A DNA stretch of 64,000 nt from Deltaproteobacteria bacterium (lineage in GTDB: Bacteria > Myxococcota_A > Polyangia > Haliangiales > Haliangiaceae). The DNA is taken from positions 1,044-65,043 of the forward strand of contig JAYSYE010000622.1 in NCBI GenBank assembly GCA_043716635.1, read 5' to 3'. The notes beneath the pieces were generated by a model that was given only the letters and a program-made list of their open reading frames with translations, ran no database searches and had not been told where the DNA came from. A program made the position numbers and the translations under genes. Of the stretch, positions 22,386 to 28,705 are shown in pieces (position 1 is the first letter of the stretch; the number at the start of each line of letters is the position of its first letter).

Positions 22386-22401
22386 ACCCTCACGTGAGGG
22401 T
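22386..22401. promoter_or_regulatory. perfect 16-bp palindrome ACCCTCACGTGAGGGT in the erpA / moeB-like divergent region
   Basis: Read directly from the sequence. The same 8-mer half-sites recur at 28612-28633 and 28684-28705. Confidence 0.6.
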
Positions 22402-22418
22402 CATGGCAATCTGCGTGC

Positions 22419-23606
22419 GTGCCCACCTTCGACACGCTGCTGCGCGAGCTCCGCGCCGGGGTGACCGAGATCAGCGCGGGTGCGCTGGCGCAGGCGCAGG
22501 CGCAGGCCGCGGAAGGCGTGACCGTGGTGGACATCCGCGAGTCGGACGAGTACGTCCAGGGCGCGCTCGCGGGCGCGGTCCACATCCCCCGCGGGTACCT
22601 CGAGCTCCGCATCGAGCGCGCCGCTCCGGATCGCGATGCGCCGGTGGTGGTGTACTGCGCGAGCGGGACTCGCTCCGTCCTGGCAGCGCGGAGCCTCGCG
22701 GAGCTTGGCTACACGGCGGTGCAGGCGCTCGCGGGCGGGTTCTCGGCGTGGAAGGCGGCGGGCTTGCCCTGGGCGCAGCCCGCGGTGCTGCGCGCGGACC
22801 AGGCGATGCGCTACTCGCGGCACACGCTGATCCCGGAGGTCGGCGTCGCTGGTCAGCAGAAGCTGCTGGCCGCGCGCGTGCTCTGCATCGGGGCGGGCGG
22901 GCTGGGGTCGCCGGTCGCGATGTATCTGGCGGCGGCGGGCGTGGGCACGCTCGGGATCGTCGACGACGATCGCGTCGATGCGTCGAACCTGCAGCGGCAG
23001 ATCCTGCACGGCACCGACCGCATCGGGATGCCGAAGGTCGACAGCGCCGCCGAGACGATCCGCAAGCTCAACCCGGACGTGACGGTCGAGGCGCACCGCG
23101 TGCGGCTCACCGCCAGCAACGCGGAGTCGCTGATCGGGGCGTACGACCTGGTGATCGACGGCGCCGACAACTTCCCGACGCGCTACCTCGTGAACGATGT
23201 CGCGCTCGAGCTCGGCAAGCCCGTGGTTCACGCGAGCGTGTTCCGCTTCGAGGGCCAGCTCACGGTGTTCGCGGCGGCGGGACGACCCTGCTATCGATGT
23301 CTGTACCCGTCGCCCCCGGAGGCGGGGGACGCGCCCTCGTGCGCGGAGGCAGGCGTGCTCGGCGTGCTGCCGGGGACGCTGGGAATGCTGCAGGCGACGG
23401 AGGCGCTGAAGCTGCTGCTCGGCATCGGCACGTCGCTCGCGGGGCGGCTCGTCGTGTACGACGCGCTCGACCTGCGGTTCCGCGAGCTGAAGCTGCGCCG
23501 CGACCCGGCCTGCGCGACCTGCGGCGACGGGGTCGATCGCAGCCGGCTCGTGATCGCGGAGGGCGCGGCTGCGGGATGTGCTGCGCCGCTGGCGGCTGCG
23601 CGCTGA
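22419..23606 (+). CDS. moeB: rhodanese-ThiF/MoeB fusion (sulfur-carrier-protein adenylyltransferase)
   Basis: N-terminal rhodanese domain (VVVYCASGTRS active-site loop), then a ThiF/MoeB domain with GAGGLGSP, CYRC and CATCG zinc-site cysteines. Confidence 0.85.
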   Translation: MPTFDTLLRELRAGVTEISAGALAQAQAQAAEGVTVVDIRESDEYVQGALAGAVHIPRGYLELRIERAAPDRDAPVVVYCASGTRSVLAARSLAELGYTAVQALAGGFSAWKAAGLPWAQPAVLRADQAMRYSRHTLIPEVGVAGQQKLLAARVLCIGAGGLGSPVAMYLAAAGVGTLGIVDDDRVDASNLQRQILHGTDRIGMPKVDSAAETIRKLNPDVTVEAHRVRLTASNAESLIGAYDLVIDGADNFPTRYLVNDVALELGKPVVHASVFRFEGQLTVFAAAGRPCYRCLYPSPPEAGDAPSCAEAGVLGVLPGTLGMLQATEALKLLLGIGTSLAGRLVVYDALDLRFRELKLRRDPACATCGDGVDRSRLVIAEGAAAGCAAPLAAAR

Positions 23607-23625
23607 CGATGGCCGAGGCGCGCGC

Positions 23626-25308
23626 GTGATCGAAGCGGGCCAGTCGATCGGCAACTACCGCATCCTGTCGAAGATCGGGACGGGCGGGATGGGCGCGGTG
23701 TACCTCGCGGAGCATCCGCTCATCGGCAAGAAGGTCGCGCTCAAGGTGATCCACCGCGAGCTCGCGGGCAACCAGGACGTGGTGTCTCGCTTCTTCCAGG
23801 AGGCGCGTGCCGCGAACGCGATCGGCAACGAGCACATCGTGGAGATCCACGACTTCGGGGTGACGGGCGAGGGCGACCACTTCTACATCATGGAGCTCAT
23901 CGAGGGCCGGACGCTGGCATCCGTGCTGTCGCGCGAGGGCGCGATCGTCCCGATCCGGGTGCTCCACATCGGTGCGCAGATCGCGAGCGCGCTCGGGGCC
24001 GCGCATGCGGCGGGTGTGCTCCACCGCGATCTCAAACCCGACAACATCATGCTGCTGTCGCGGCTGGGCGATCCCGACTTCGTGAAGGTGCTCGACTTCG
24101 GGCTCGCGAAGGTGTTCCAGGGCGGCGGCGCCAGCATCGGCGGCACGGGCGGTCCCGGGCGGCCGGTCGTCACGCAGGCGGGCGTGCTGCTCGGGACGCC
24201 GCAGTACATGGCCCCCGAGGCGTGCGAGGGCAAGGGCGTGCTGGACCACCGCGCGGACGTGTACGCGCTCGGCATCCTGCTGTTCGAGATGGCGACGGGC
24301 CGGCGGCCATTCGACGGCGACTCCATGGCCGAGGTGCTGATGAAGCAGGTGCGGTCGCTGCCGCCGGCGCCGCGGGCCTTCGATGCGGCGATCCCGCCGG
24401 CGGTAGAGCAGGTGATCCTGCGCTGCCTGGCGAAGCTGCCGGAGTTGCGGTTCCAGACGATGGCCGAGCTGCACGAGGCGCTCGTGGATCCAGACGCGTA
24501 TCTGCGCGCGTCGCCGCCGATCTCGCCCGCGCGCTCGGTGGGGCCGGGCGAGCTGGGGGTAAATGCGGCGGCGCTGCGGATGCACGTGGAGGCGCAAGAA
24601 CGAGCGAGGGGGCCGGGGCCCGGCCTGGCGGCGCCGACGGGGAGGAACCCGCTACCGGGGCTGGCGCAACCCGCAGCGCCGCTGAACCAGACGATGCGGA
24701 TCGACACGCCGGCCGGGCACGTGTCGCGACCACGGCGGCGGGTGTGGCCGATCGTGCTGGTGCTCGGGCTGCTGCTGGGCATCGGGGGAGGCGCGTTCGC
24801 GGTGGCCTGGAGCGGTAAGGACGACCAGGACGACGCGGGCGCGGGCGCAGCCATGCCGCCGCAGCTGGGTACCGGCGCGGCGGGCCGCGATCCGGCGCTC
24901 GCGCTCGGAGTCACGGGGTCGATGGACGACGCGGCAGGGGGCGCCGCCGGCGTGGTTCCCGCCGACGCGTCGGCACCGGTGGCGGCCGTGGCGGCAACGA
25001 CGGTGGATGCGGCAACGACGGTGGATGCGGCGCCGACGGCGACGATCACGTTGACGACGGTGCCCCCGGGCGCCACTGTCCGTGCGGAGGGGCAGACGTT
25101 CGGCATCACACCGCTGACGCTGCGGCACCAGGTCGGGGCGGTGACGCTCGAGCTCCGGCTGTCCGGCTACCGGACGAAGACGGTGACGCTCGAGGTCGCG
25201 GCTGACCGGGACGTGGCGGTGACCCTGGCGAAGGCCAGAGCTGCGGGCGCGCGACCTGCCGGCGTGGGGCCCGGTAGCAACGACACCGGCCTGATGCGAC
25301 CCGAGTGA
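23626..25308 (+). CDS. Ser/Thr protein kinase with a TM segment and a C-terminal PEGA domain
   Basis: HRDLKPDN, DFGLAK and GTPQYMAPE. TM segment WPIVLVLGLLLGIGGGAFAVAW. PEGA-like ITLTTVPPGATVRAEGQTFGITPL. The start may be 23578 (track) or GTG 23626. Confidence 0.88.
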   Translation: MIEAGQSIGNYRILSKIGTGGMGAVYLAEHPLIGKKVALKVIHRELAGNQDVVSRFFQEARAANAIGNEHIVEIHDFGVTGEGDHFYIMELIEGRTLASVLSREGAIVPIRVLHIGAQIASALGAAHAAGVLHRDLKPDNIMLLSRLGDPDFVKVLDFGLAKVFQGGGASIGGTGGPGRPVVTQAGVLLGTPQYMAPEACEGKGVLDHRADVYALGILLFEMATGRRPFDGDSMAEVLMKQVRSLPPAPRAFDAAIPPAVEQVILRCLAKLPELRFQTMAELHEALVDPDAYLRASPPISPARSVGPGELGVNAAALRMHVEAQERARGPGPGLAAPTGRNPLPGLAQPAAPLNQTMRIDTPAGHVSRPRRRVWPIVLVLGLLLGIGGGAFAVAWSGKDDQDDAGAGAAMPPQLGTGAAGRDPALALGVTGSMDDAAGGAAGVVPADASAPVAAVAATTVDAATTVDAAPTATITLTTVPPGATVRAEGQTFGITPLTLRHQVGAVTLELRLSGYRTKTVTLEVAADRDVAVTLAKARAAGARPAGVGPGSNDTGLMRPE

Positions 25309-25375
25309 ACGGGCTCGCGCAAAGTTGTCAGAGTTGGCCCCGTCCCCGGGCGGTGCGAGGGGGTATGGTTCAAGG

Positions 25376-28533: not shown

Positions 28534-28611
28534 GCACCGCGAGCGTCCCGCGGCTGCCGCCGCCGTCAGGGCGTGCCCCGGACCGCCGCCGCGGCGCTGG
28601 ACCGCAGCCCA

Positions 28612-28633
28612 ACCCTCACCTTGACGTGCGGGT
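28612..28633. promoter_or_regulatory. candidate operator A: ACCCTCAC-N6-GTGCGGGT
   Basis: Inverted 8-mers (15/16 complementary) just upstream of, and overlapping the -35 side of, the merR-like promoter. Confidence 0.5.
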
Positions 28634-28638
28634 CGTGC

Positions 28639-28667
28639 TTGACAGCCAGGGTCGAGCCCACCATAGT
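28639..28667 (+). promoter_or_regulatory. sigma-70-like promoter of the merR-like / isc operon
   Basis: TTGACA (28639-28644), a 17-nt spacer, then CATAGT (28662-28667), about 55 nt upstream of the ATG at 28723. Confidence 0.45.
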
Positions 28668-28683
28668 CCCGTCACCAGCACTG

Positions 28684-28705
28684 ACCCTCACGTATGCGTG
28701 AGGTT
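28684..28705. promoter_or_regulatory. candidate operator B: ACCCTCAC-N6-GTGAGGTT
   Basis: Inverted 8-mers (15/16 complementary) between the -10 element and the start codon. Its centre lies 72 bp from the centre of operator A. Confidence 0.5.

Follow-up and report, generated by a model that had tools for sequence, protein, structure and literature searches.

Bacterial regulators of iron–sulfur (Fe–S) homeostasis include IscR, RisR, the NsrR-like Rrf2 proteins, SufR, and RirA. In Escherichia coli, holo-IscR represses iscRSUA, erpA, and nfuA (PMC10117729). In Myxococcus xanthus, the Rrf2 protein RisR is encoded with suf and regulates both isc and suf, the isc locus itself being without a regulator gene; holo-RisR represses isc through a palindrome located at the –10 box and the transcription start, and its motif is TkGAC-N7-GTCCw (PMC9973013). 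Here we analyze a 64,000-nucleotide stretch of a Haliangiaceae genome (GenBank assembly GCA_043716635.1, contig JAYSYE010000622.1; ~70% GC), hereafter the window, in which a MerR-family gene stands first in an isc operon and a 22-bp inverted repeat occurs three times: once on each side of the merR–isc promoter (sites A and B), and once between the divergent genes erpA and rhodanese-moeB (site C). The best reading of these elements, to which we give a probability of about 0.7, is that they would be operators for a MerR-family protein that represses isc, erpA, and moeB as well as its own gene, a functional analogue of IscR or RisR.

The candidate regulator shares with E. coli IscR its place as the first gene of the isc operon, a predicted autoregulation, a predicted regulon comprising isc and erpA, and a cysteine-rich candidate sensor. 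A regulator gene leading isc with an operator at its own promoter was found in the window, at 77 related loci, among distant homologues, and in Sorangium, and the pairing of isc with an A-type carrier recurs in the presence of site C at erpA (the window and 35 relatives) and in two distant loci, L149 and L159, where a carrier gene lies behind the regulator gene. The two regulators are nevertheless unrelated: the fold here is MerR and that of IscR is Rrf2, and the sole Pfam hits of the present protein are MerR domains, with no Rrf2 winged-helix domain among them. Further differences from IscR are the 22-bp operator itself (AACCTYACGT..ACGTRAGGTT), the cysteine motif C-x2-C-x8-C-x2-C, the placement of operators on both flanks of the promoter, and the sharing of the erpA operator with rhodanese-moeB. 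RisR comes from the same phylum as the window and likewise represses isc, whereas the present regulator is of MerR type, is encoded with isc, and occurs in the Polyangia (Kofleriaceae, Polyangiaceae, Sorangium). The RisR motif has no exact match in the window and, with matches in 3 of 77 relatives, is not conserved; a RisR-type operator at isc was rejected, as the window sequence TTGAC-N7-GTCGA inside the promoter spacer is both inexact and unconserved. A tblastn search with E. coli IscR gave no match in the window, and neither a second MerR-like gene nor an Rrf2 gene was found in its 64 kb.

The MerR-type protein has hundreds of homologues at 75–85% identity, of which the named ones belong to Kofleriaceae (Myxococcota, Polyangia). 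A genome scan for homologous loci carrying the regulator yielded 80 loci from metagenome-assembled Kofleriaceae and Haliangiales genomes; counts given below for the isc promoter cover the 77 loci whose upstream region is included, and those for site C cover 36 loci, namely the window and 35 relatives. A symmetrised 22-bp position weight matrix (PWM) was built from the A and B sites of the relatives (77 Kofleriaceae genomes), with the window left out. The aligned sites of the relatives have as their consensus a single 22-bp palindrome, AACCTYACGT-NN-ACGTRAGGTT (8-6-8), in which every mirror pair is complementary; positions A7, C8, G15, and T16 are invariant, and C4, A18, and G19 nearly so. Applied to the window, the relatives-only PWM scored 33.4 bits at 28684 (site B), 23.7 bits at 22380 (site C), 23.1 bits at 28612 (site A), and 10.0 bits at 22386, in a register overlapping site C. 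No other position in the 64 kb reached 8 bits, a level at which shuffled windows give 0–2 hits. Across 1.1 Mb of related loci, matches of at least 15 bits beyond the assigned A and B sites consisted of two shifted site A registers and one further class, which lies upstream of the regulator in constant orientation and is the orthologue of site C.

An earlier reading of this DNA, made from the letters alone (hereafter the sequence-only reading), had reported the three sites, and their sequences were found at the coordinates that it gave. Its observation by eye that the exact 8-mer ACCCTCAC is confined to these sites was also borne out, the only occurrences being at 22386(+), 22394(–), 28612(+), and 28684(+); the four compare with 1.27 expected, and 2 of 100 shuffles reach that number. 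When the full 8-N6-8 pattern was allowed up to three mismatches, four matches were found against 0.20 expected, and no shuffle reached four. The bare 7-mer CCCTCAC is not enriched in the window (11 found, 8.8 expected), so the signal resides in the palindromic arrangement rather than in the word. The three elements are clearly real, functional, and conserved operator sites, far from what chance would produce.

At the isc operon, A and B flank a promoter TTGACA-17-CATAGT at 28639–28667, with centres 72 bp apart, just as the sequence-only reading had described. The –35 box (TTGACA, 28639–28644, + strand) and the –10 box (CATAGT, 28662–28667, + strand) were both called by a promoter scan, are conserved in the 77 relatives, and stand out in the phylogenetic footprint; with its 17-bp spacer, this promoter is near consensus. 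Site A, ACCCTCAC-CTTGAC-GTGCGGGT (28612–28633; 23.1 bits), stops 5 bp short of the –35 box and in the window carries C at the nearly invariant position A18. Transcription is predicted to start near 28674, at a conserved TCA (28672–28674, + strand) that lies 5–7 nt past the –10 box in 36 loci of identical geometry. Site B, ACCCTCAC-GTATGC-GTGAGGTT (28684–28705; 33.4 bits), would thus occupy approximately +11 to +32 in the 5′ leader.

This layout recurs among relatives. In nearly all of the 77, site A is followed by ~5 bp, TTGACA, 17 bp, CATAGT, ~16 bp, site B, and the start codon. The distance between the centres of A and B is 71–73 bp in 71/77 loci and exactly 72 bp in 41; the interval from the end of site A to the –35 box measures 4–6 bp in 74/77, and that from the –10 box to the start of site B 15–17 bp in 75/77. 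The promoter spacer is 17 bp long in 72/77 relatives, and both sites lie outside it. Phylogenetic footprinting of orthologous isc promoters, which the sequence-only reading had proposed, found the motif conserved across the 77 loci, and among the 36 loci of identical geometry conservation is limited to A, the –35 and –10 boxes, TCA, and B, while the spacer and linkers vary freely. Site A appears to have been added in loci of the Kofleriaceae type, and L109 (68% identical) has it too; distant homologues mostly have a single site, which starts 7–13 nt past the –10 box. In one relative (L075:1200-1340), the upstream operator lies within the 17-bp spacer (TTGACCCTCACGTAAACGTGAGACATAGT), that is, at the classical MerR position though without a long spacer; it is the sole relative of this kind. 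Upstream of site A in the window, ~350 bp without a convincing gene (28261–28611) separate it from a BON-domain gene, an unusually long stretch that holds only 67-codon open reading frames (e.g. 28330–28533); in some relatives, RNase Y instead ends directly upstream of the isc promoter.

Site C lies between erpA and moeB, in the window as in 35 relatives. The erpA-like gene for an A-type Fe–S carrier (21934–22359, – strand) matches Pfam Fe-S_biosyn, NCBIfam ErpA (116.6 bits; cut-off 117), and TIGR00049 (108 bits); the divergent gene for a ThiF-family adenylyltransferase/sulfurtransferase, rhodanese-moeB (22419–23606, + strand), matches Pfam Rhodanese and ThiF and NCBIfam PRK08762 MoeB (556.7 bits; cut-off 449). 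Site C fills the centre of the 58-bp region between them. The sequence-only reading had placed it at the perfect 16-bp palindrome ACCCTCACGTGAGGGT (22386–22401), without a spacer, and had suggested that half-site spacings of 0 and 6 might reflect two binding modes. The palindrome consists of the right half-site and an inner direct-repeat half-site and is contained in a canonical 22-bp register, GACCTTAC-CCTCAC-GTGAGGGT (22380–22401; 23.7 bits), where the spacing is again 6. In relatives this class reads SACCTTAC-CCTYAC-GTGAGGGT: the left outer half ACCTTAC is present in all 36 loci and the right half GTGAGGGT in 35, whereas the inner hexamer is CCTCAC in 27 and CCTTAC, CCATAC, or CTTTAC in the other nine. 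Because the outer halves are near-invariant while the inner hexamer varies, the 22-bp, 6-spaced register is the unit under selection, and the 16-bp palindrome is a by-product of a central hexamer that by chance repeats the half-site. A zero-spacer binding mode was therefore ruled out, and with it the puzzle of unequal spacing disappears.

A weaker register overlaps site C at a 6-bp offset (ACCCTCAC-GTGAGG-GTCATGGC, 22386–22407; 10.0 bits) and possibly serves as an auxiliary site. Second, weaker registers of this kind, formed by half-sites in tandem 6 bp apart, recur in distant lineages (L084, L104, L107, L154, and Sorangium, L201:5966-5993). At erpA/moeB, the overlapping registers might accommodate two dimers, one on each face of the helix. 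An outer inverted repeat, ACGCAGA...TCTGCGT (22374–22380 and 22410–22416), brackets site C in the window and was not seen in relatives.

The left half-site of C also contains a likely promoter element. On the – strand, TAAGGT (22381–22386) is invariant in 36/36 loci, and at a distance of 17 bp every locus has TTGCCA, TTGCCG, TTGCTC, TTGCCT, or TTGTCA at the –35 position (TTGCCA at 22404–22409, – strand, in the window). From this conservation, TTGCCR-17-TAAGGT is likely the erpA promoter, with the operator lying over its spacer and –10 box, although a generic sigma-70 scan called no promoter in the erpA/moeB intergenic region. Transcription of erpA is predicted to begin near 22374 (– strand). 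In 16/36 loci, the erpA ATG lies 5–8 nt past the edge of site C, and because it is so near the –10 box a leaderless erpA mRNA is predicted there; the other loci have a short leader with a Shine–Dalgarno sequence, as does the window, where an AGGAGA ribosome-binding site stands 7 nt 5′ of the ATG at 22359. No convincing candidate for a moeB promoter was identified in the intergenic region, and since site C fills its centre, any such promoter must overlap the site.

The protein that binds these operators, as dimers, is most likely the MerR-family product of the gene at 28723–29364 (+ strand; 213 aa). This gene, ~5 kb downstream of the erpA/moeB pair, leads an operon with the order merR-iscS-iscU-iscA-hscB-hscA-fdx, and in every locus of the genome scan it comes first after the sites. 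The sequence-only reading had named the adjacent MerR-type protein as the obvious candidate and had taken the shared motif as the mark of one Fe–S regulon. Both proposals, the regulon being the merR–isc operon and the divergent erpA and rhodanese-moeB genes, are supported insofar as motif and gene occur together at the heads of isc operons in the 77 Kofleriaceae genomes, in distant relatives, and in Sorangium. Homologues of only 39–52% identity, found by a metagenome scan for the motif core, head merR-iscS-iscU-iscA-hscB-hscA-fdx operons with a high-scoring upstream site (L087, L104, L114, L141, L154, L173, and L174), and in Sorangium sp. So ce118 (L201) the regulator heads the same operon behind a 33.4-bit site that starts 7 nt past TTGACA-17-TACAAG. 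A profile search put the family at no fewer than 5,562 proteins at E ≤ 1e-10, a count in which the cysteine motif was unchecked and which includes Polyangiaceae and Sorangium sp. So ce118. Protein and site may also have changed together: where the regulator has R36, the residue just before the wing, position G20 is present in 67/67 B sites, against 5/10 where R36 is absent, a suggestive co-variation. The length of the operator likewise fits the heavy-metal MerR regulators, which have palindromic operators of 21–22 bp (PMC5045206), the present ones measuring 22 bp. Two loci, L149:7969-8551 and L159:516-1098, encode a distantly related version of the regulator behind the motif, and there the place of iscS directly after it is taken by a gene for an A-type carrier (IscA/ErpA-like).

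Canonical MerR activators work from an operator centred in an over-long promoter spacer of 19–20 bp (PMC5045206). The present geometry is different: the spacers of the isc and likely erpA promoters are 17 bp, and sites A and B lie outside. Repression is favored because of these 17-bp spacers, the position of B at +11 to +32, the single downstream site of distant relatives, and the location of C over the erpA –10 box. In the resulting model, a regulator dimer on site B would block initiation, promoter escape, or elongation at isc, and another on site A (approximately –62 to –41) would sit directly against the –35 box. The A–B distance, fixed at 72 ± 1 bp (~7 helical turns), suggests that the two dimers would cooperate and possibly bend the promoter into a small loop. 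At the other locus, a dimer on site C would cover the spacer and –10 box (TAAGGT) of the likely erpA promoter, and its occupancy would control both erpA and moeB. Looping or autoregulation had been raised in the sequence-only reading; autoregulation is supported by the sites at the regulator's own promoter, and the conserved A–B phasing is compatible with cooperative binding or looping.

A MerR-family repressor acting on the operon that encodes it has a precedent in HspR, the repressor of the actinobacterial dnaK operon, which is encoded within that operon and binds several HspR-associated inverted repeats (HAIR) around the promoter. Like HspR, the present protein belongs to the MerR family and is a predicted repressor encoded in the operon it would control, from more than one inverted repeat around the promoter. 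Unlike it, the present regulator is encoded first and not last in the operon, has the cysteine motif that HspR lacks, and would recognize a motif other than HAIR.

The sequence and predicted structure of the regulator place it in the MerR family, characterized by an N-terminal winged helix-turn-helix and a long dimerisation helix. Three Pfam models (MerR_1, MerR-DNA-bind, and MerR) matched above cut-off, the AlphaFold model has a predicted local distance difference test score (pLDDT) above 90 for residues 10–120, and the top Foldseek matches were CadR, NmlR, CueR, PbrR, and SoxR. All of the specific NCBIfam cut-offs were missed, however: CueR (65.3, cut-off 147.4), MerR (63.3, cut-off 150.9), ZntR (53.7, cut-off 168), and CadR-PbrR (56.8, cut-off 151.5), as were those of the SoxR model (37.3 bits, cut-off 116.9) and HspR (21 bits, cut-off 105). 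CueR, CadR/PbrR, ZntR, and MerR are the best matches in sequence and structure and have in common with the present protein palindromic operators of 21–22 bp and cysteines after the dimerisation helix. It differs from these heavy-metal regulators in falling below their equivalog cut-offs, in having operators outside a 19–20 bp spacer, in its four cysteines per chain, and in a genomic context of Fe–S assembly rather than metal efflux.

The four cysteines form the motif C125-x2-C128-x8-C137-x2-C140, with H142, H145, and a conserved P-x-L-[VF]-A-G behind it. All four cysteines are kept without exception by 56 close homologues and by nine further sequences down to 44% identity; the two histidines are invariant among close relatives only. 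C125 lies three residues past the position aligned with a cysteine near the end of the PbrR691 dimerisation helix, which we take to be a metal ligand, and the motif falls in the region where MerR-family sensors (CueR, PbrR, and the [2Fe–2S] protein SoxR) hold their metal or cluster. SoxR, a MerR-family redox sensor in which four C-terminal cysteines spaced C-x2-C-x-C-x5-C bind a [2Fe–2S] cluster, is the precedent for a cluster-bearing member of the family; it activates from within a long spacer, and neither its cysteine spacing nor its model score is matched here. By analogy, the C-x2-C-x8-C-x2-C motif may bind an Fe–S cluster (or iron) supplied by the iron–sulfur cluster (ISC) machinery, the cluster-loaded regulator then shutting down isc, erpA, and moeB through a feedback like that of holo-IscR in E. 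coli, a proposal whose odds we would set a little below even. An Fe–S cluster as co-repressor is the most economical hypothesis because the gene context mirrors the holo-IscR regulon. Two other features of the C-terminal part were noted. A possible mimicry of the HscA-binding LPPVK of IscU by the peptide APPLFAGLS was dropped, as distant homologues keep P-x-L-V-A-G only. In addition, the C-terminal linker of the window regulator contains a tandem duplication (29214–29296), in which a 10-residue peptide is present in two copies at an 18-residue interval, one of them missing from the closest homologue (P0002).

Four other explanations of the sites were considered. That the matches represent chance similarity in a GC-rich genome has a negligible probability: the unenriched 7-mer CCCTCAC would be in keeping with it, but the shuffle statistics, the specificity of the relatives-only PWM, and the retention of the sites in position and sequence across ~80 genomes have already refuted it. 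The sequence-only reading had also allowed for site B acting as an RNA hairpin. In its wider form, sites B and C would be hairpins in 5′ leaders that sequester the ribosome-binding site in many relatives and control translation or mRNA stability. Site B is indeed transcribed, hairpins are predicted by folding, and the right half of B (GTRAGGGT) ends 3–7 nt before the ATG in many relatives, where it is the only Shine–Dalgarno-like sequence. However, the variable mirror positions 2/21, 6/17, and 9/14 are complementary no more often than shuffled columns, so that sequence and not pairing is conserved; the folding z-scores are weak (–1.1 to –2.2), an Rfam search gave no hits in the window, and the sequence is repeated in site A, which precedes the –35 box and is not part of this promoter's transcript. 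The hairpin was accordingly discarded for absent covariation, weak folding, and the lack of an Rfam hit, and we hold it to be very improbable. Because the half-sites do not covary and site A precedes the –35 box, the sites are better read as protein operators; a translational side effect of site B, doubling as a Shine–Dalgarno sequence, is possible but secondary.

If the sites are operators for a protein, that protein could be encoded elsewhere (a paralogue within the MerR family, or a dimeric regulator of some unrelated kind), and the adjacent MerR-type protein would then have another target. Other MerR-family genes do adjoin CCTTACGT...ACGTAAGG palindromes in unrelated metagenome contigs (L133 and L151), but from Kofleriaceae to Sorangium the motif remains associated with this one regulator gene even as protein identity falls to ~40%, and protein and site co-vary (R36/G20). 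The window lacks any other MerR or Rrf2 gene, and the M. xanthus RisR motif, absent from the window, is matched in 3/77 relatives; a binder from elsewhere is therefore improbable. Somewhat less so, though still unlikely, is that the same MerR-type protein works as an activator or dual switch, in which site A would recruit RNA polymerase and, at erpA (22386–22407) and in L075, a dimer between the –35 and –10 boxes would change the twist of the DNA in the manner of MerR, CueR, and SoxR. The MerR fold, closest to CadR, CueR, and PbrR, suits this activity, as does the L075 site within the spacer, and ~7.5 bp separate the centre of the weaker register at 22386–22407 from the likely –35 box of erpA (measured from its 3′ end), the canonical distance for 22-bp MerR-type sites (PMC5045206). 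Against it, the spacer is 17 bp at every promoter involved and not the activator-dependent 19–20 bp, the strong sites A and B are outside the spacer, the strong register of C covers the –10 box, and distant relatives have their one site at the transcription start or a little past it.

The autoregulated repressor remains our preferred reading, and several observations weigh against it or against a cluster as its signal. MerR proteins classically activate from a 19–20 bp spacer; the isc geometry departs from this family norm, repression is argued from position, and site A, centred at approximately –51, could fit the position of an activator too. With respect to the identity of the binder, unrelated MerR-family genes in metagenome contigs adjoin similar CCTTACGT-N4-ACGTAAGG sites (L133 and L151), a MerR paralogue could be able to recognize the motif, and the R36/G20 co-variation comes from few independent lineages, perhaps two or three. 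Evidence for the regulon comes from isc and the erpA/moeB neighbourhood only. As for the signal, a C-x2-C...C-x2-C arrangement is also typical of structural zinc or rubredoxin-type iron, either of which would suit the motif as well as a cluster does, and the AlphaFold model over the cysteine region (pLDDT 50–66) is unreliable, with no readable geometry.

An extension of the regulon was sought by scanning metagenomes for the motif core with the pattern CCTTACGT-N3-CGTNAGG. The high-scoring extra hits in GC-rich contigs adjoined other MerR-family genes or major facilitator superfamily transporters (L133, L100, and L181), or lay at contig ends, and none was assignable to the isc regulon. Separately, the exact 22-mer AGCCTTACGGAAACGTAAGGCT or its reverse complement was seen in at least 15 metagenome contigs with GC fractions of 0.37–0.62 (L085, L098, L101, L110, L123, L150, L176, L184, L185, L197, and others); it is a widely conserved or mobile element unrelated to the isc regulon.

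The remaining genes of the operon, all on the + strand, were assigned from Pfam matches: iscS, encoding cysteine desulfurase (29364–30656; Aminotran_5), its start codon overlapping the regulator's stop codon; iscU (30683–31078; NifU_N); iscA (31083–31541; Fe-S_biosyn); hscB (31519–32067; HSCB_C); hscA (32101–33978; HSP70); and fdx, encoding a [2Fe–2S] ferredoxin (33985–34428; Fer2). Between this operon and the erpA/moeB pair lie genes for a Ser/Thr kinase, RNase Y, and the BON-domain protein. Elsewhere in the window, a gene at 15362–16600 encodes a bacterial type IB topoisomerase (Pfam Topoisom_I and Top1B_N_bact), and one at 35435–36616 (– strand) encodes a 393-residue protein whose C-terminal part matches the ClpXP adaptor SspB, the whole being much longer than the usual SspB.

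As objects, operators of an autoregulated transcription factor are ordinary; what appears to be new is the pairing of this regulator with this regulon, and what appears to be non-canonical is the mode in which the MerR protein works. None of the open-access literature searched describes a MerR-type regulator of isc. Taken at its widest, and with slightly less confidence than we attach to the cluster-binding motif, our tentative proposal is that Polyangia may control ISC with an undescribed MerR-family Fe–S or iron sensor (C-x2-C-x8-C-x2-C), a non-orthologous replacement of IscR/RisR that would repress optimally spaced promoters from operators at or around them, the in-phase pair 72 bp apart in Kofleriaceae clamping or looping the promoter. 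If true, a MerR regulator of isc, erpA, and a sulfur-relay enzyme would represent a further, independently evolved answer to the same feedback problem. It would likewise be the second possibly cluster-bearing MerR protein after SoxR, and a member of the family that acts from outside the promoter spacer. The presence of the family in cultured Sorangium makes the hypothesis directly testable, and the 22-bp matrix is a ready tool for mapping the regulon in any Polyangia genome.

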